A stretch of 64,000 nt of DNA from positions 96,001-160,000 of the forward strand of contig CAVVOB010000013.1 of the NCBI GenBank assembly GCA_963749655.1, read 5' to 3'. Source of the DNA: Nitrospirota bacterium. GTDB taxonomy: Bacteria > Nitrospirota > UBA9217. A model generated the notes under the pieces. It was given only the letters and a program-made list of their open reading frames with translations, searched no databases and had not been told where the DNA came from. Positions 53,157 to 61,854 of this stretch are shown piece after piece. A program made the position numbers and the translations under genes. How positions within the stretch are numbered: position 1 is the stretch's first letter; each line of letters opens with the position of its first letter.

Positions 53157-53972
53157 CTAGTACACGAACTGCCCCAGAATGATCAGCACCAGCAGCAGGA
53201 ACCCGGCAGCCACGACCGCGAACCCGAAGATGATCCCCATGTCCGTTATCCAGTTCTTCTGCGGCTCCACCATGAGCCGGTCCATCTGCCGTTCTTCGGT
53301 CAGGCGCTGATACTCCAGCGGCCGTTCGTGCTGCAGTTCATGAACACTGACGGCCCCCGTGAAGATGACGGGATCCATCGGGAATTTTTCCGGCCGCATA
53401 TGAGTGTTGAAAAAGTGGATCGTGAAAATAAAGCCCGCCGCGAGGAGCGCCTCGTCGCTGTGGATGACCGTGGCGATGTTGAACACCCAGCCCGGGAAAA
53501 AACGGCCGAAGAACTCCGGGAACCAGAGGAACAGCCCCGACACGCCGATCATTCCCACGCCCCAGAATACGGCCCAGTAGTCGAACTTTTCCCAGTAGGT
53601 CCACCGGTCGAACTGCGGCTTCGGCCCCATCCCGAGGAACCACTTGAAGTTGTTGTAGATGTCTTCGAGGTCCTTGAGCCAGGGCACCATGGACTCGGGG
53701 CCGAGGGGGTTGAACCGCATTTTCCGGACAACCACGATATTGTGCAGGACATAGGCGATATGGGCCGCGAAGTACCCGAAGGTGAGGACCGCGCAGATGC
53801 GGTGGATGAGGGCCGCGCCCTGGTAGCCTCCTTCAAGCCCTACGAGCCAGGCCGCCCACGGCGCCTGGGCGTACTTGATCGGCATGCCCGAGGCAACGAG
53901 GCCGATGAAGCTGAGGGCCATGACCGCGTGCAGGACGCGGTGGTAAGCGTTGAACCGTCGTACCTGTGCCAT
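53157..53972 (-). CDS. Cytochrome b subunit (FdnI/HydC-like, CbcL-type)
   Basis: RF...HRVLH, IHR, WEKFDYWAVFWG, HSDEALLA, IHFFNTH.RP.KFP. Confidence 0.9.
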   Translation of the reverse strand: MAQVRRFNAYHRVLHAVMALSFIGLVASGMPIKYAQAPWAAWLVGLEGGYQGAALIHRICAVLTFGYFAAHIAYVLHNIVVVRKMRFNPLGPESMVPWLKDLEDIYNNFKWFLGMGPKPQFDRWTYWEKFDYWAVFWGVGMIGVSGLFLWFPEFFGRFFPGWVFNIATVIHSDEALLAAGFIFTIHFFNTHMRPEKFPMDPVIFTGAVSVHELQHERPLEYQRLTEERQMDRLMVEPQKNWITDMGIIFGFAVVAAGFLLLVLIILGQFVY

Positions 53973-53973
53973 A

Positions 53974-54957
53974 TTATTCGCCCCCTTTCTTTGTCATACG
54001 TTCTTTCAGCGCGCGATAGGCCCAGAGGAACGTATGGATAAAGAAGAAGGTGAACACGCCGATCAAAAGCGTCGTCATGAACAGGAAGGTGTAGTAGAGA
54101 ATGGGGTATTTCTCCCGGTTGCCCTCTTCCCCGTGAGCGTAGAACTTCGTGAATCCCCGCGTCGCGTGGGCATGGCATTTTTTGCACGTGGCGAGGATAT
54201 TGTGCTGCGCCAGCGGCGACAGGCGGTCGGCGACGGAAACGATCGCATGGGACCCGTGGCAGTCAGCGCATTTCGCCATGGTGGCATAGCCGAGCTCCGT
54301 CACCTTGCCGTGGTAGGTCTTATGATAGGTCTTCATCTGCTCCTGGTGGCAGTTGCCGCATTGCCGGATGAGCGAAAGCTTCCACCGGTCGGTGACTGTC
54401 GGGGGTGCCAGGTGCTCCAGGTGGCAGTCAAAGCAGGTGGGCGCCTTCAGCGTCAGGTCGAGCTGGAGCGCCGTGGCGTGGATGCTGGTCCGGTATGCCT
54501 CATACTCGGCAGGATGACACTGCGAACAGAGAGCAGGGATCTTCTTCCTGTTCGTAGCCGAACGCGTGTCAGCGGAGGGGTAAATGGCATGCGACCCATG
54601 GCAGGTCTGGCACGTCGGCGCCGCGCCATTTCCCGCCGCGGCTTCTTTCCCGTGCACGCTCAGCTTGTACTGCTGAGCCTGCTCTTTCGGGGCGCCTTCG
54701 TTGCCCGTGAAGTGGCAGATGCCGCAGTTCACCTTCGCCGTCTTCCCGTGGGGATATTCCGTTATCCCGAGATGGCATTTGGCGCAGGCCAGGTGTCCGT
54801 GAACCGATTGCTCCAGTGCGGCGCGGTCGACATACCCCTTCGAGCCCTTCTGGCCGTGACAATCGTAACAGATATTCTGTGCGAAAGCGGCGAGGGGGAA
54901 GAGGAGGCAAAGGAACAGGAAAAAAAGTATTAGACGTTTCTTGCCAGGGCAATGCAT
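53974..54957 (-). CDS. Nonaheme c-type cytochrome with C-terminal membrane anchor
   Basis: Signal peptide; nine CxxCH (CYDCH, CAKCH, CGICH, CQTCH, CSQCH, CFDCH, CGNCH, CADCH, CKKCH); C-terminal TM. Confidence 0.93.
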   Translation of the reverse strand: MHCPGKKRLILFFLFLCLLFPLAAFAQNICYDCHGQKGSKGYVDRAALEQSVHGHLACAKCHLGITEYPHGKTAKVNCGICHFTGNEGAPKEQAQQYKLSVHGKEAAAGNGAAPTCQTCHGSHAIYPSADTRSATNRKKIPALCSQCHPAEYEAYRTSIHATALQLDLTLKAPTCFDCHLEHLAPPTVTDRWKLSLIRQCGNCHQEQMKTYHKTYHGKVTELGYATMAKCADCHGSHAIVSVADRLSPLAQHNILATCKKCHAHATRGFTKFYAHGEEGNREKYPILYYTFLFMTTLLIGVFTFFFIHTFLWAYRALKERMTKKGGE

Positions 54958-55270: not shown

Positions 55271-56701
55271 CTACCTGATGATATCCGCCGTGAAGGAATA
55301 GAGCTGCGCGTCTTTCCAGGCGTCCTTGGGCAGGCCTGCCTTGATCGAGACCTGCTCAAGGAACGTCGGCACGTCCCAGTGATATTCCTCGGCAACCTGG
55401 GGGAGGAGGATGCCGCTGTTCCATCCCTTTACCAGGTAGAGTCCGTGCGTCCCGATCCTGATGTTTTTAACGTCCAACAGGAGTTCGAGGGGAGAAAGGA
55501 CTGTGACCTCGACGGACATATCGTTCAGCTCCTGAGGCGTCATGGGTTCGAATCGCGGGTCGCGGGAGCAGGCCGAGACTGCGTTCGTGATGACGGACTT
55601 GAACAGCGGCATGACGGGTTCGATGTTCCCGATGCAGCCCCGCAGGCGCCCGCTGCGATTGATCGTGACAAAGACGGCCCCGTTGGCCGCGAGACGGGCG
55701 TCTTTCGGTTCGAACTGCGGCGTCTTGCCGTGCTTCACATAGCTTTCTATCGTTCGTCTGGCAAGAGCGAGAAGCTCCCGTTGCTGTTCTGCTGTGAGCG
55801 CGCTTTTGTACAGGCCCAGCGCCGCATATCCCACGACCCGGGTACGGTCATTTGTCACATCGCCCGAGTTCGCCGCGTTGAACAGCACGCCGTTGGTTGC
55901 GCCGAGCCTCCGGGCCGCTGCCATGGCAACGAGCACCGCGTACCCGCCGCACATTTCACCCTCGCTGCTCCGGAGGCGCTGCTCCAGGTCTTCCACCGAC
56001 ATCCTGGCCACGGCGTTGGTGACCGTTCCGTCCATTTTTTTCGCTGTTCTGTAATCGTGATAATGGGAGAGGTCCGTGCTCGCGATGATGATCGTCTTCG
56101 GATTTTCAGCGACAATCGACGTAAGGCTGCGGATCAGGGAGTCGAAGGATTCCTGTGTGGGGCGGCCGATCAGGACAGGCACTATGGTGAAGCGCGTCAG
56201 CGTGCGCTGAAGGAACGGCAGCTGCACCTCGATCGAGTGCTCCTTTTCAAAGGCCGAGGTTGACGCCGTGACGCCTGCTTTCGGGTCGATGAGCTTTTTC
56301 GCGAGCCGGTCGTTGATCTTGATCGTTCCCAAAGGGGTCCGCATGCCGCCTGACGCATACACGACAGCGCCGTTCACCTCGGCGTAATGGCTCGGTCCGA
56401 TCAGTATAACCGTATCGACCGGCCGTTCCTGCAGATGGCGGTACGCATAGGCCGCGACCTGTCCGGAATACTGGTACCCGGCATGGGGCGCGATCAGGGC
56501 GATGAGCTTCCCTTCCACGGGGGTCGTCTTTGCGCGGGACAGGAAATCGTCGACCATGGCGGTAAGCGCCTGTTTGTCCGCGGGATAGAAGGCCCCGGCA
56601 ACCGCGGGCTCCTTGACGGTCCCGCCGGCGCCCACAAGCAGGACGGTCAGGACCAGGAGAATGGACAGCAATGCAGCTCCGACAAGGTGCTTACGCTTCA
56701 T
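55271..56701 (-). CDS. amrB: AmmeMemoRadiSam protein B (Memo) - protein A (AMMECR1) fusion with signal peptide
   Basis: PAVAGAFYP, APHAGY.YSG, GPSH, EHSIEVQLPF, STDLSHY; then GAVFVT, LRGCIG, DPRF, LLPQVA; hydrophobic N-terminus. Confidence 0.93.
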   Translation of the reverse strand: MKRKHLVGAALLSILLVLTVLLVGAGGTVKEPAVAGAFYPADKQALTAMVDDFLSRAKTTPVEGKLIALIAPHAGYQYSGQVAAYAYRHLQERPVDTVILIGPSHYAEVNGAVVYASGGMRTPLGTIKINDRLAKKLIDPKAGVTASTSAFEKEHSIEVQLPFLQRTLTRFTIVPVLIGRPTQESFDSLIRSLTSIVAENPKTIIIASTDLSHYHDYRTAKKMDGTVTNAVARMSVEDLEQRLRSSEGEMCGGYAVLVAMAAARRLGATNGVLFNAANSGDVTNDRTRVVGYAALGLYKSALTAEQQRELLALARRTIESYVKHGKTPQFEPKDARLAANGAVFVTINRSGRLRGCIGNIEPVMPLFKSVITNAVSACSRDPRFEPMTPQELNDMSVEVTVLSPLELLLDVKNIRIGTHGLYLVKGWNSGILLPQVAEEYHWDVPTFLEQVSIKAGLPKDAWKDAQLYSFTADIIR

Positions 56702-56828
56702 CTTTTCTCCTCCAGAACCTGGCGGGCTTGTCCTGCTCCTTGGATTTTATCTTTTTTGCAAGAAAACTGATGATGCCGCCTGCGAGGAAGAATCCGAGGA
56801 AGCTCCTTCGTGATATGGTGTCCTTCAT
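56691..56828 (-). CDS. 45-aa twin-arginine (Tat-signal-like) peptide
   Basis: Manual translation MKDTISRRSFLGFFLAGGIISFLAKKIKSKEQDKPARFWRRKDEA*; AAGAGG RBS; overlaps the amrB start. Confidence 0.72.
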   Translation of the reverse strand: MKDTISRRSFLGFFLAGGIISFLAKKIKSKEQDKPARFWRRKDEA

Positions 56829-56849
56829 TGTTCGCCTCTTTTCAAGGGC

Positions 56850-56923
56850 CGTCATTCCGGGCTTGACCCGGAATCCAGTGGCTTTTCGCTAAGTCCTGGA
56901 TTCCTGCTTCCGCAGGAATGACG
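56850..56923. repeat. REP-like palindromic element (copy 2)
   Basis: CGTCATTCCGGGCTTGACCCGGAATCCAG...CTGGATTCCTGCTTCCGCAGGAATGACG. Confidence 0.75.
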
Positions 56924-57981: not shown

Positions 57982-57999
57982 TAGTCAGTTAAATGTTTT

Positions 58000-58086
58000 G
58001 CCGCAGAGTTCTCAGAGGACACGGGAAAAAGCTTAAGAATCATTATTCCTGGAGTTTTCCTCTGTGCTCTCAATGTCCTCTGTGGC
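58000..58086. repeat. 9-mer-based inverted-repeat element directly upstream of amrS
   Basis: GCCGCAGAG TTCTCAGAG GACACGGG ... CTCTGTGCT CTCAATGTC CTCTGTGGC. Confidence 0.72.
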
Positions 58087-58125: not shown

Positions 58126-58329
58126 TTACTGCTTCTCCTTCCAGTAAGAGCCTTGATGCAGGCTGAGCCCCTTTTTCGAGATCGTGCTTTCGTAGTAGAC
58201 GCGGCGTTTCAGATAATTCTCGATGTCAGGTATCACCGTTTCCCGGAGCACGGAAAAGGCCAGAATCGCAATGACGAGCCCTGCGCTCGCGGAAAGCAAT
58301 ACCTTGAATTTTTGTTTGTCCTTCTCCAT
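58126..58329 (-). CDS. Small single-TM protein
   Basis: MEKDKQKFKVLLSASAGLVIAILAFSVL...GLSLHQGSYWKEKQ; co-oriented within the cluster. Confidence 0.65.
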   Translation of the reverse strand: MEKDKQKFKVLLSASAGLVIAILAFSVLRETVIPDIENYLKRRVYYESTISKKGLSLHQGSYWKEKQ

Positions 58330-58401
58330 AGGCAGCAAATTAAATCTTCTCTCTCTGGTGGTTCTTTGTCAAGCCGCATTTACCGGCCTGCAGGGCCTTT
58401 T

Positions 58402-58544: not shown

Positions 58545-59771
58545 TCATCGACCTGCAGGGCCGTGCTGAAAACAGCGGTTGCAGCGGATGCACTCGGAAA
58601 CAGCCGGATTCGGCTTGTTCGCCACGGGACAATCGGCGCCGCTCGGATATCCCCTTGCCTCTCTTGACAAGGCGCCGGTCAGCGCGGCCACAGGACAAAG
58701 ATACCGGCACCAGAACCGTTCGATGCGCAGGTTCGCGGCAAGGGCAATAACGACGAGGGCCCATGTTAACGCTGTACCGTTGAAGGAAAAGAGCGTCACG
58801 TAGGCCTCGTAGTTCCCGTAGTCCGCGCTGCTGCCTGTGAACGCCAGAACAACGGCGAGGCCGAGCAGGCCATATTTCAAGGTTCTCGCACGGCCGTCCA
58901 GTTCGGGCGGGATTTCCCATTTGCGGAAAGGCAGCCTGCTTATGAACTCGGACAAAGCGCCGAAGGGGCAGAGCCAGCCGCAGTAGAACCTTCCTGCCAC
59001 GATGATAGACGCGAAGGTGCTGATAACGAGCACATACCACAGCATCGACGACGACGGCCTCAGGAGGACAAGGTTAAAGACGTGAATGACGGAGAAGGGG
59101 GCGGAAAGATATAAACCGACGATGATGACGGAAGAGGCCAGGCTGAGGTCCCTCAGCGTCTGAAACTTCCGCGATCGCCGCGTAAGAACATATCCCGCTG
59201 CAGCGGCGATGAACAGGCCTGCGTACCACAGCCAGGCGGTTTCGCGGCGGCCTGTGCCGGCCGGTCCGGAACTGATGCCGAGGACGTCCCTTGCCGCGGT
59301 GCGCGAGGACTCCCTGACCGTATCAGCCAGGGCTTTAACGCTCACCGTGGCGCGGGTGATCCCATCGATGTCGCGGTCCACCTCGAAGGGATCGGTCACG
59401 CTCTTCCCGATGAATTGGCTGAGATAGGACGGAAGCTCGAGATAGCGGACGTAATTCTTCGTCTCCCGGTGCTCGATGATCCTGAGGCCGGCGATCATTC
59501 CCTCGCGGCTCAGGACGACCATGACCTTGATCGGACCTGCATATCCCCTGATCTGCGGCACGATGTCATGGGAGTTGAAGGCGACAGCTCCATCCCCGGA
59601 GCGATAGACCGGTGGGCTGCCCTGCTTCTCTGCAAAACGCGAGTCAGGAGCAGCGATCTTGAGAATACTGCGTTCATCGGGCGCAGGCGCCATGAGGCGG
59701 GACCGGACAAGGTGGCCCGTGATCAGCGAACAGAGGGCAAGGGCTGTAAGGAGGATTCTAATTTTTTTCAT
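58545..59771 (-). CDS. FMN-binding domain + polytopic 4Fe-4S (NosR/NapH-like) membrane protein
   Basis: GYAGPI, IIEHRET, DGITRATVS; GRFYCGWLCPFG, RFWCRYLCP, CP...CIRCNRC. Confidence 0.88.
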   Translation of the reverse strand: MKKIRILLTALALCSLITGHLVRSRLMAPAPDERSILKIAAPDSRFAEKQGSPPVYRSGDGAVAFNSHDIVPQIRGYAGPIKVMVVLSREGMIAGLRIIEHRETKNYVRYLELPSYLSQFIGKSVTDPFEVDRDIDGITRATVSVKALADTVRESSRTAARDVLGISSGPAGTGRRETAWLWYAGLFIAAAAGYVLTRRSRKFQTLRDLSLASSVIIVGLYLSAPFSVIHVFNLVLLRPSSSMLWYVLVISTFASIIVAGRFYCGWLCPFGALSEFISRLPFRKWEIPPELDGRARTLKYGLLGLAVVLAFTGSSADYGNYEAYVTLFSFNGTALTWALVVIALAANLRIERFWCRYLCPVAALTGALSREARGYPSGADCPVANKPNPAVSECIRCNRCFQHGPAGR

Positions 59772-61854
59772 GGCCCAGGACCATCAGCAGCACCAGCGAA
59801 GACGCTTTCAGCGCAATCAGCGACAGGATCGCATTCCCGACTCCGAGAAGGGGCACGAAGAGTATGGATGCGGAGAGGGCTCCGAGAACGGCGCCTCCCA
59901 GGTCCACGGCATAGAGCCGCCCCGCATGCTCTCCCGGCTTCGCGCCTCCGATCAACCGGCTTATGAGCGCGAACTGCATCCCGGCCATGGCGCCGCAGAG
60001 GAGGACCATGACGTAATAGAACAGCTCGAGGGTGAAGAAAAGCGGCGCCACAAGAAGCAGCAGCAGTGAGGCCACGTCCAACGCCTGGACCCACGACTGC
60101 GATCGTTTCAGGAACCGGGCCCCGGAAGCGCCGGCCGCCGTGCCTGCCATGAAGAGGGCAGAGAGGATGCCGATCCGTTCGTAGACATAGCCGAACGACG
60201 CCTGATACATAAGCAGGACAGCCACGTTGAACGCCATGGCGAAGTAGCCGGTGGTGAAAAGGCTGTAATAGAACGTACGCTGTTTTCTCCAGAACAGGAC
60301 AACAGCCGTCAGGAGCAGTGCGGCAAAGGCCGTCAAGACGGGAACTTCGCCTGCGCCGACGATGCTGTTCAGGAACGCGCCGCCGTGCGTCTCCGTCCAG
60401 AGCATGAGGTTGTACAGGTAGGCGACCGGCCTGCGGTCCCTGTTGAGCGTGTCGACCGCGCCGAGCCGTGCAGCGACCATGTCCGTTTTCATCGGGTCGA
60501 AGATGTCCTTGAAGATAAGGGGGTAGAAGTATTCGGTCTGCACGCCCCGTGCGGAAAATCGCATCGCAAGCTCGTCAGGGTCCGCCTTCAGGGGCCTGTC
60601 CGAAGCGTACATGCCTCCGTATTCCTCGGAAGAGAGCGCCACGGTCGGGAAGACCGCCTTCAGCGAGCGGTAAATGGACCCGTTGGCGGCCTGCAGACGC
60701 CGTCCGATGTAGCCGTGGGACGCGGGCAGGGTCAGGGCGAGGACGCCGCCGGGGTTCAGGATCGCGCGGGCCTCGCGGAAAAATTCCACGGTATAGAACC
60801 TGTTGAGATTGGCGGTCGAAGGCTCGGGCAGGTTCAGGATCACGATATCGTACCGTGCTTTTGCAGCCGACCTGACAAAGGACCGCGCGTCCTGCACATT
60901 GACCTTCAGCCGTTTGTCGCCCAGCCGTTCCCGGTCCTCGCGGGTCAGGATGCTGAAGCAGAGGTCGATCATTTTGGGGTCGATCTCGACGAAGTCGACC
61001 TCCACCGCCGGATACTTCAGCAGCTCCCGCGCAACGGCCGCGGACCCGCCGATCAGCAGCACCCGGCCGGGCGACTCATGGAGCGACATCGGCACGTGGG
61101 CCCGCAGTTCCTCGGTCTGCTCATCGGGATAGGAGAACGCGAACCTGCCTGAGGTGAAAAGATTGAGCTGGTCGTCGGAATCGTAGAGCGCGAGCTCTCC
61201 ATACTTCGATTCCACGCGCTGAACCAGATCGAGGTCCTGTTCGGGCGCGTTCTCGACGATCGTCGTGGCCGCAACATGAAAAAGCAGGGGGATGACCAGG
61301 AACAGGAACCTCCGTTTTTTCTTCAGCAGCACGATCGTGAGCAGGATGTTCACGAAGCTGACTGCGGCGACAAGAGCGAAGGCATTGACGTTTCCGGCGA
61401 ACAGCACGGTAAAGAACAGGCCTCCGAGAAAAGAGCCCGCTGCCTCCAGGCCGTAGGTCCTGGCGGTGTCGCCTTTCAGGAAAGCCACGGCCAGCGGAAA
61501 CTGGGTGCCGATCATGAAGCAGACAGGGGCGAGGGCAAGAACAGTGGAGAGCACCGTGGTAGTCAGGGGGACCGTTTCGCCTGCTACCAGGCCGAAGACC
61601 GGGTGAATGAGGCTGATGAACAAGACGGAGGTTTGGGCCAGGAGAGCAACGCCGAAGAAGGAATACTCAAAAGCGTTTCTGTACCGGAACCTCCGGCCGA
61701 AGATGCTGCCGAGTCCGACGGCAAGGAGCCAGACCGCAAGGGTGATGCCGATGTCGAGCTCGTTCCCGGAGAAGACGGTCAAAAGCTGGCGCAAGGCGAT
61801 GATCTGCACCAGGATCGAGGTGAACCCCATTCCGAGAACAGCAAGGATGTTCAT
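59758..61854 (-). CDS. Polytopic membrane protein fused to a spermidine-synthase-like SAM-binding domain
   Basis: N- and C-terminal TM bundles (YGLEAAGS, LYAVDLGGA); central VLLIGG, VEIDP, DAR, YDIVILNLPEP, FYTVEFF. Confidence 0.88.
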   Translation of the reverse strand: MNILAVLGMGFTSILVQIIALRQLLTVFSGNELDIGITLAVWLLAVGLGSIFGRRFRYRNAFEYSFFGVALLAQTSVLFISLIHPVFGLVAGETVPLTTTVLSTVLALAPVCFMIGTQFPLAVAFLKGDTARTYGLEAAGSFLGGLFFTVLFAGNVNAFALVAAVSFVNILLTIVLLKKKRRFLFLVIPLLFHVAATTIVENAPEQDLDLVQRVESKYGELALYDSDDQLNLFTSGRFAFSYPDEQTEELRAHVPMSLHESPGRVLLIGGSAAVARELLKYPAVEVDFVEIDPKMIDLCFSILTREDRERLGDKRLKVNVQDARSFVRSAAKARYDIVILNLPEPSTANLNRFYTVEFFREARAILNPGGVLALTLPASHGYIGRRLQAANGSIYRSLKAVFPTVALSSEEYGGMYASDRPLKADPDELAMRFSARGVQTEYFYPLIFKDIFDPMKTDMVAARLGAVDTLNRDRRPVAYLYNLMLWTETHGGAFLNSIVGAGEVPVLTAFAALLLTAVVLFWRKQRTFYYSLFTTGYFAMAFNVAVLLMYQASFGYVYERIGILSALFMAGTAAGASGARFLKRSQSWVQALDVASLLLLLVAPLFFTLELFYYVMVLLCGAMAGMQFALISRLIGGAKPGEHAGRLYAVDLGGAVLGALSASILFVPLLGVGNAILSLIALKASSLVLLMVLGHEKN

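Follow-up and report, generated by a model that had tools for sequence, protein, structure and literature searches.

A microprotein gene between amrS and amrBA in Nitrospirota as a candidate detached leader of the radical SAM enzyme AmrS

Introduction

Substrates of twin-arginine translocation (Tat) are normally targeted by a signal on the cargo itself or on a full-size partner subunit. In known Tat hitchhikers, one subunit bears a twin-arginine (RR) signal, and a signal-less, cofactor-bearing partner is thought to ride with it as a folded complex, as described in passages on Ni-Fe hydrogenase and formate dehydrogenase subunits (PMC10924467, citing Rodrigue et al. 1999), PaoABC (PMC4273604) and arsenite oxidase (PMC13673990). 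In this study, we analyzed a 64,000-nucleotide stretch of a Nitrospirota bacterium (GenBank assembly GCA_963749655.1, contig CAVVOB010000013.1, positions 96,001 to 160,000 of the forward strand; hereafter the window), which harbors a 45-codon micro-open reading frame (micro-ORF) downstream of amrS, the gene for the AmmeMemoRadiSam radical S-adenosylmethionine (SAM) enzyme. The micro-ORF lies between amrS and a fused amrB-amrA gene (amrBA), and we characterize its product as a putative detached leader of AmrS that may provide this enzyme with a Tat signal in trans.

Each of the known carriers is a folded, full-size subunit that has its own function, whereas the carrier considered here, with a putative role in export, would consist of a predicted signal and about 20 residues derived from the cargo's own N-terminus. 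FAD glucose dehydrogenase employs a dedicated five-helix "hitchhiker protein," the small γ-subunit, which bears an RR signal and is described, in a passage of the source, as needed for folding and secretion of the Fe-S catalytic subunit (PMC6719666). The micro-ORF peptide differs from this five-helix protein in that it has no domain and is predicted to add a single β-strand. Fe_hyd_SSU (PF02256), the small subunit of periplasmic [FeFe]-hydrogenase, matches the C-terminal segment of monomeric hydrogenases and carries a Tat signal. It would thus resemble the present case as a segment of an Fe-S enzyme encoded by a separate small gene that bears the export signal, and differs in being a C-terminal fragment of about 90 residues in its mature form. 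In an Atlas feature search, Fe_hyd_SSU ranked 22nd with a score of 0.88 among scores of 0.87–0.91 and with a recognition value below the mark, and is taken as a lead only. Rieske proteins are anchored by an uncleaved Tat signal, according to a passage in PMC13673990. An RR signal that likewise remains membrane-embedded and keeps an Fe-S protein at the outer face would be possible for the window copy, which has no obvious AxA cleavage site; the Rieske anchor, however, is covalently part of its protein. Neither a carrier composed of just a signal and one cargo strand nor an exported AmrS was described in the literature that we searched. Burroughs et al. 2019, who reportedly describe Memo-AMMECR1 systems, may bear on the matter.

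Results

Conservation of the micro-ORF

The micro-ORF product, MKDTISRRSFLGFFLAGGIISFLAKKIKSKEQDKPARFWRRKDEA, is 45 aa long and has no family in NCBIfam or Pfam. An earlier note on this DNA had reported the position of the ORF, a ribosome-binding site (RBS), an SRRSFL motif, a hydrophobic stretch and a stop codon overlapping the start of the next gene, and we recovered all of these from the sequence on the minus strand (Table 1); the overlap reads ATGAAGCGTAA. The terminus needed correction, as the peptide had been said to end in KPARFWRR and in fact continues past the RR to end with ...KPARFWRRKDEA. The RBS of amrBA, GGAGGAG (56713-56707), is located inside codons W39–R41 of the micro-ORF, and homologous micro-ORF starts at other loci are preceded by GGAG-like sequences. 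An alternative in-frame start (ATG 56855), which would yield 54 aa, was dropped because it falls inside a repetitive extragenic palindrome (REP)-like element (56851-56878) and is absent from the homologues, which start with M-T/K-R-R.

An ORF of 45 codons is unremarkable by itself, given that the 9 kb around the locus contain 92 ORFs of at least 30 aa, and it is conservation that lifts the micro-ORF above chance. An AmrS search with one genome per species provided 80 loci (designated by L numbers), the 18 nearest of which belong to Nitrospirota; L058 and L067 stop short of the downstream region, leaving 16 assessable Nitrospirota loci. The micro-ORF was present between amrS and amrBA in all 16. 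It was also found in genome G031, which belongs to the same family and another genus and was the sole carrier among the 60 relatives searched (57% identity, E 5.6e-10); here, it likewise has 45 codons and an equal overlap with amrBA. The gene therefore recurs beside leaderless amrS. Its length in Nitrospirota is 37–45 codons, except for the 75 codons at L056, which has an insertion, and its junction with amrBA differs among loci, being overlapping or abutting, with a gap at L063.

Alignment of 18 peptides revealed the family consensus M-T-R-R-x-F-L. Five positions (R7, R8, A36, F38 and W39) do not vary, and F10 and G17 hardly do. R7, R8 and A36 are each encoded by 3–4 different codons (R7 by 4 and R8 by 3), and the proportion of nonsynonymous differences (pN; mean, 0.34) was below that of synonymous differences (pS; mean, 0.80) in 153 of 153 pairs. 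When a profile of the 18 peptides was searched against 1.84 billion representative proteins, 93 matches were obtained at E<=1e-3, including 34 at E<=1e-10. Four long matches (P0202, P0208, P0210 and P0213) were weak or multi-stretch and were set aside; the other 89 are small-protein clusters of 34–104 residues, and the RR pair is present in 86 of these, the motif [AGS]-x-[FYW]-[WYF] within the C-terminal 16 residues in 86, and the two together in 83. A word-index protein search with the single 45-aa peptide gave no match, a result that reflects limited sensitivity because the profile search later found these 93. In the window's own genus, none of the 14 other genomes had a peptide match better than E 0.0138; they hold stand-alone AmrB only (~35% identity), and the locus is therefore patchy within the family. 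A search of sequencing runs listed no RNA run, and the six DNA runs listed share 0.05–0.12 of the sequence words. Judged by this conservation, the micro-ORF is almost certainly a real gene.

AmrS in leaderless, fused and canonical forms

The window AmrS matched TIGR04337 (cut-off, 220 bits) over profile positions 11–333 of 349. The match is thus not full-length, and the N-terminal positions that are missing correspond to the strand that the micro-ORF is predicted to carry. AmrS begins 6 residues ahead of its first Cys, and the abrupt start at MAKTVQC pointed out in the earlier note is genuine: an in-frame stop codon lies two codons upstream of the ATG, so no N-terminal extension is possible. 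The Cys residues of the CX3CX2C motif (C72, C76 and C79) are invariant in 86 sequences. The best 120 AmrS protein clusters (72–100% identity) are all 316–330 residues long, which identifies the short N-terminus as a clade trait and not a truncation. No Shine–Dalgarno-like sequence precedes the amrS ATG (57982-58010, minus strand; ...aaaacatttaactgactaATG), unlike the starts of the micro-ORF and amrBA.

An N-terminal extension is the usual state of AmrS at the other 62 of the 80 loci, in which leaders of the RR (25), KR/RK (12) and hydrophobic non-RR (17) types occur; the remainder comprises a frameshifted RR form (L114), a form with no leader (L120) and six loci with a downstream RR micro-ORF. 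Among the 80 nearest species-level loci, many AmrS proteins thus do have a Tat-like leader, in agreement with the earlier note. At L114, which derives from a Calditrichia metagenome-assembled genome (MAG), the RR leader and IEARYYEKLDHKKIRC (L114:2778-3032) are out of frame with the rest of amrS, apparently by a frameshift in a fused form.

For comparison of N-termini, the fused set comprised 53 sequences, with L092 (open 5' end), L075, L083, L084, L105, L109, L110, L114 and L120 left out. The motif [AGS]-x-[FYH]-[YWF] was found at −13 to −10 from the first Cys in 52 of the 53, typically as K-E-A-x-F-Y-x-K-L. Canonical AmrS proteins of relatives have the strand MK[QE]AMF[QYW]E at their very start in 28 of 29 cases, L140 (the G031 copy of the window locus) being excluded from this count. 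The alignment thus reproduces the "EA-x-(F/Y)-(Y/W)" strand that the earlier note had placed before the first CxxC. A second AmrS of the same genome (G000:C29:60821-61810; L134:1456-2511, minus strand) is canonical, 351 aa long and leaderless, and starts with the strand (MKSALFQEPRENKGVRC). The genome therefore has two AmrS systems, of which the window one is of the export type.

The fused leader-AmrS proteins of Aminicenantes, Omnitrophota, Terriglobia, Thermodesulfobacteriota and other MAGs (L069–L130) are 51–60% identical to the window AmrS. They have a matching order of elements, namely leader, linker, K-E-A-x-F-Y-x-K-L strand and then x-V-Q-C-x-L-C-P, and often an equal downstream amrBA with a leader. 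They differ in being one polypeptide, whereas the leader and strand of the window locus are encoded by a separate gene downstream of amrS. In 17 fused AmrS proteins (L069–L097, L104, L128 and L129; mostly Omnitrophota), the leaders are Sec-like and non-RR, some with AxA-like sites such as ...PNALA-DT; this is puzzling because cytoplasmic folding would be expected of AmrS, an enzyme that has three conserved Cys clusters.

Probable equivalence of the micro-ORF to the AmrS leader and first strand

We built a position matrix with a 10-residue window from fused AmrS only and applied it to the micro-ORF C-termini, with 3525 ORFs of the same loci as controls. Seventeen of the 18 peptides scored 8.1–24.7 bits versus a control 99th percentile of 6.1 bits. 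The window peptide scored 11.6 bits, a value reached by 3 of the 3525 control ORFs, and the top control ORF (22.1 bits) was the frameshifted leader of L114. Spacing was also in agreement: in fused AmrS, 9 residues separate the motif from the first Cys, and in the split form, 3–7 (mostly 4) peptide residues after the motif and 6 AmrS residues including Met add up to about 10, so that the lengths of the split pieces sum to the fused spacing within one residue.

A second split group was found in Omnitrophota, Fermentibacterota, Planctomycetota and unclassified MAGs. In all six of its loci (L075, L083, L084, L105, L109 and L110), a leaderless AmrS is followed by a downstream RR micro-ORF, with ends such as ...KEASFYRQADDLAG (L084) and ...REAQFYRRVNRA (L105). 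In an AmrS tree made by a quick method, for which SH-aLRT was the sole measure of support, the value was 100 for the Nitrospirota clade (20 rows) and 83 for the second split clade (6 rows); both are in one half of the tree, and three fused Omnitrophota sequences are sister to the second clade. At L105, the amrS ATG is overlapped by an upstream ORF (L105:2783-2989) that has a hydrophobic leader and ends with ...LREARFYTTLKK, and an RR micro-ORF (L105:3963-4130) is also present downstream. The arrangement resembles a split in situ with an additional copy downstream, and the pair may represent an intermediate in the move of the leader gene to its place downstream of amrS.

Position, motif, spacing and the fold prediction described below support the proposal of the earlier note that the peptide is a detached leader of AmrS. 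The micro-ORF is very probably equivalent to the leader plus first β-strand of AmrS.

Predicted binding of the peptide to AmrS

The complex of AmrS (alignment of 86 rows) with the peptide (alignment of 18 rows) was predicted in three runs alongside three controls. The ipSAE was 0.93 in the three runs, whereas the best control reached 0.02; 58 of 80 solved complexes attain the mark set for this score, as do 2 of 110 mismatched pairs. At least 85% of contacts were common to the runs, and the partner pLDDT was 52–53, a low value because peptide residues 1–32 were not placed. The predicted interface comprises peptide residues 33–43 (DKPARFWRRKD) and AmrS residues 3–9 and 32–36, which form the N-terminal Cys-rich hairpin, with further AmrS contacts at 15, 27, 30, 39, 125–127, 129, 151 and 153–154. 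Strand complementation in trans, as the earlier note had envisaged it, is thus favored by the model.

The fused homologue L101, modeled with AlphaFold2 (mean pLDDT, 92.7), showed a helical leader at residues 4–27, a low-confidence linker and an ordered motif region, with a pLDDT >95 for residues 41–60 and strands at 46–50 and 53–56. A PDB sequence search with AmrS gave no match at E<=1e-3, leaving strand 1 without an AmrS structure for comparison; in a Foldseek search with the fused AmrS model, the best match was pyruvate formate-lyase activating enzyme (3cb8; E 1.6e-14). Taking the predicted models as a whole, we consider it likely that the peptide binds AmrS by strand addition.

Signal features of the peptide and of AmrBA

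The Tat consensus is an S/T-R-R-x-F-L-K type motif in a short basic n-region. The peptide has S-R-R-S-F-L at residues 6–11, followed by an uncharged stretch of 16 aa (S9–A24), and the h-regions of the family comprise 11–16 uncharged residues. The maximum 10-residue Kyte–Doolittle mean was 2.38 for the peptides versus 3.26 for the AmrBA leaders of the same loci, a comparison that is overstated by the relatedness of the sequences. Most members have KK after the h-region, and inspection by eye showed AxA-like sites, such as KKAKA-E and KKASA-V, in many of the 89. These features would fit a Tat signal better than a transmembrane helix. The pair would also fit a carrier and its hitchhiking cargo, AmrS being without a signal of its own and the peptide carrying an RR signal. 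TatC is intact in the relatives G031, G002 and G024.

AmrBA of the window matched AmrB at 278.2 bits (cut-off, 26) and AmrA at 175 bits (cut-off, 99), as well as Pfam Memo and AMMECR1, and the locus thus qualifies as an AmmeMemoRadiSam system. It has a hydrophobic N-terminal leader of 29 residues. Such a leader is present in 34 of 34 scored AmrBA N-termini, 17 of which have a lipobox-like Cys directly before the Memo domain; a further 12 N-termini were unscored because they did not match the Memo-start expression, and their sequences also show hydrophobic leaders. L057 and L063 have the Cys in a form missed by the lipobox expression, and the window and G031 proteins are without it, the lipobox Cys having been lost in these two. 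Based on the leaders and the lipobox Cys, AmrBA is predicted to reside outside the cytoplasm, and its Sec- or lipoprotein-type leader suggests that the whole system may work there.

Surroundings of the locus

The features of the locus are summarized in Table 1. The gap between amrS and the micro-ORF is ~180 nt and holds a convergent pair of REP-like hairpins (GTCATTCC...GGAATCCAG). Their family has 41 matches in the genome versus 0 for a control pattern, often paired ~45 nt apart, and the insertion is absent at the same spot in G031.

Table 1. Coordinates of features of the amrS–amrBA locus and its neighbors in the window
Feature	Position	Strand	Details and basis
amrBA, fused Memo (AmrB) and AMMECR1 (AmrA), 476 aa	55271..56701	minus	TIGR04336 at residues 30-295, TIGR04335 at residues 309-474
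11-nt overlap of micro-ORF end (GATGAAGCGTAA) with amrBA start	56691..56701	minus	amrBA ATG 56701-56699
Micro-ORF, 45 codons	56691..56828	minus	ATG 56828-56826, TAA 56693-56691
Parts of micro-ORF product			predicted Tat-type signal (n-region MKDTISRR, h-region S9-A24, basic KKIKSK) and C-terminal strand motif
Putative strand-1 equivalent and predicted interface, codons K34-D43 (KPARFWRRKD)	56700..56729	minus	fused-AmrS matrix, complex prediction
Twin-arginine consensus codons S6-R7-R8-S9-F10-L11 (SRRSFL)	56796..56813	minus	sequence
RBS AAGAGG	56835..56840	minus	6 nt 5' of micro-ORF ATG
Pair of REP-like hairpins	56851-56878 and 56896-56922		between amrS and micro-ORF; sequence and genome pattern search
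amrS, AmmeMemoRadiSam radical SAM enzyme, 324 aa	57007..57981	minus	TIGR04337, 375.6 bits
70-aa ORF	58126-58338	minus	directly upstream of amrS
NosR/NapH-like protein	58545-59771	minus	FMN_bind and Fer4_5; two genes upstream of amrS
698-aa polytopic membrane protein	59758-61854	minus	spermidine-synthase-like domain (NF037959, PF01564)
Multihaem c-type cytochrome and cytochrome-b-like membrane protein	53157-54957	minus	downstream of amrBA

The 70-aa ORF upstream of amrS has one hydrophobic segment and no Pfam or NCBIfam family match, and is kept (40–58% identity) at 7 of 81 loci, all of Nitrospirota. The NosR/NapH-like protein recurs at 5 of 81 loci and is a candidate electron route to the outer face. 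The spermidine-synthase-like membrane protein is encoded within 3 kb of this AmrS clade at 30 of 81 loci across phyla, and directly after amrS at Aminicenantes-type loci; it may be part of the AmrS system, and any SAM-related function that it might have at the membrane is speculative. The same strand encodes, downstream of amrBA, a 327-aa multihaem c-type cytochrome with a weak GSU2203-family match and a membrane protein that is cytochrome-b-like (formate dehydrogenase gamma-like), genes that were not found in the 3-kb flanks of the other loci.

Discussion

We favor, with moderate confidence, the view that the micro-ORF encodes a detached leader that lends a Tat signal to AmrS by strand complementation, for export or for tethering. 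The micro-ORF would be a separate gene for the N-terminal leader and first β-strand of AmrS, which form one piece with the enzyme in other phyla. The peptide strand (residues 33–43) would add onto the N-terminal Cys-rich hairpin of folded AmrS (residues 3–9 and 32–36), and AmrS would thereby gain a Tat signal in trans. In members with KK and AxA, the signal would be cleaved, with a peptide of ~20 residues left on AmrS; the window copy, which has no AxA, may instead persist as a signal anchor. Given that the signal would attach only to the folded hairpin, the split could in itself serve for proofreading. The overlap of the micro-ORF with amrBA suggests that the two may be translationally coupled. 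Judging from sequence features, Tat-dependent export of AmrS seems somewhat better supported than its absence, and riding as a Tat hitchhiker would be its most likely mechanism.

Several observations weigh against this interpretation. With regard to equivalence, L068, L075 (1.1 bits) and L110 (no motif) fail to score with the matrix, L068 because its tail falls one residue short of filling the 10-residue window. A search with the peptide profile gave no link to fused AmrS N-termini at E<=1e-3, so that equivalence rests on the 10-residue motif, position and fold prediction. In addition, the ipSAE of 0.93 may reflect a "memory" of the intrachain contacts of full-length AmrS and thus speaks for likeness rather than as proof of binding. 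With regard to export, the window peptide has no obvious AxA site, and its C-terminal tail has a net positive charge (+4), which would be compatible, too, with an N-out/C-in tether at the cytoplasmic face. The tatC gene of this assembly (G000:C18:11038-11718, L131) is in three frames of 96, 127 and 86 aa, which could be due to assembly frameshifts or a defective Tat system; the fragmented gene adjoins a TatA-like ORF. Furthermore, we know of no SAM or low-potential electron source outside the cytoplasm, and 17 of 54 fused relatives have non-RR, Sec-like leaders. Since a folded Fe-S enzyme should not use a Sec-like leader, the leader may serve a role other than export in some lineages.

Much of the above would be accommodated by a membrane tether without export, in which the peptide inserts N-out/C-in or binds peripherally, the basic peptide tail retains AmrS at the cytoplasmic face close to where AmrBA is exported, and the RR pair is a relic or serves insertion only. 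The lack of an AxA site in the window copy, the non-RR hydrophobic leaders of the 17 fused relatives and a tail with net positive charge in 17 of 18 family members all point this way, as does the need of radical SAM chemistry for SAM and a reductant, which to our knowledge occur only in the cytoplasm. However, 11–16 uncharged residues do not suffice for a stable transmembrane helix, and the stretch has a lower hydrophobicity than the AmrBA leaders. The RR pair is invariant (18/18), is present in 86 of the 89 clusters and is embedded in a T/S-R-R-x-F-L consensus. Moreover, many members have KK and AxA, and the AmrBA leaders, often with a lipobox, place the partner outside. We therefore regard a tether without export as unlikely, though as the strongest of the competing explanations.

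It is also conceivable that the peptide is a structural strand donor only, completing the AmrS fold while its signal-like part is vestigial and has no targeting role. The equivalence and the predicted interface do involve residues 33–43 only, and residues 1–32 were not placed in the complex (pLDDT, 52–53). Nevertheless, the invariance of R7 and R8 across 4 and 3 codons and the near-invariance of F10 and G17 indicate that the leader part is under selection. Besides, canonical cytoplasmic AmrS proteins keep the strand fused without a leader, and a strand-only role would therefore leave the separate leader gene unexplained. This explanation is thus improbable.

Two further explanations are very improbable. 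A small ORF adjoining a radical SAM gene might encode a substrate or a precursor resembling those of ribosomally synthesized and post-translationally modified peptides, and radical SAM domains related to the Memo-AMMECR1 ones occur in peptide-processing systems, according to a passage in PMC7159879; the conserved C-terminal motif, however, constitutes strand 1 of the enzyme itself in fused and canonical AmrS, the 18-peptide alignment has no conserved Cys/Ser/Thr core region such as a precursor should have, and the predicted contacts are with the N-terminal hairpin of AmrS. Likewise, the 11-nt overlap with the amrBA start would allow the ORF to be an AmrBA leader joined by frameshift, or a decaying remnant, but all 34 scored AmrBA proteins have a leader of their own, the junction varies from overlaps of differing length to the gap at L063, the ORF is under purifying selection (pN<pS, 153/153), and the C-terminal motif belongs to AmrS and not to AmrB.

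Extending the detached-leader interpretation, we tentatively suggest, at somewhat less than even odds, that many anaerobic phyla have a whole radical-SAM/Memo/AMMECR1 system operating outside the cytoplasm. AmrS of Thermodesulfovibrionales-type Nitrospirota would then be exported by the smallest known hitchhiker carrier, a free Tat signal with a ~20-residue tail that snaps on as the missing strand 1, so that only correctly folded AmrS would gain the signal. The spermidine-synthase-like and NosR/NapH-like neighbors might supply a SAM-related substrate and electrons outside.

If true, the micro-ORF peptide would represent a minimal natural "signal in trans," which docks by completing the cargo's own β-sheet and ties export to correct folding without a dedicated chaperone, and it could be an engineering template comparable to split tags. 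As for annotation, public data contain ~89 clusters of this microprotein, for which Pfam and NCBIfam both lack a family. It is unexpected in itself that a Memo-AMMECR1 protein should be located outside the cytoplasm, and the system prompts the question of how radical SAM reactions could proceed there. Export-type leaders on the radical SAM enzyme as well as on its Memo-AMMECR1 partner are a feature of this large AmrS clade that bears on the function of a system conserved from bacteria to human MEMO1 and AMMECR1.

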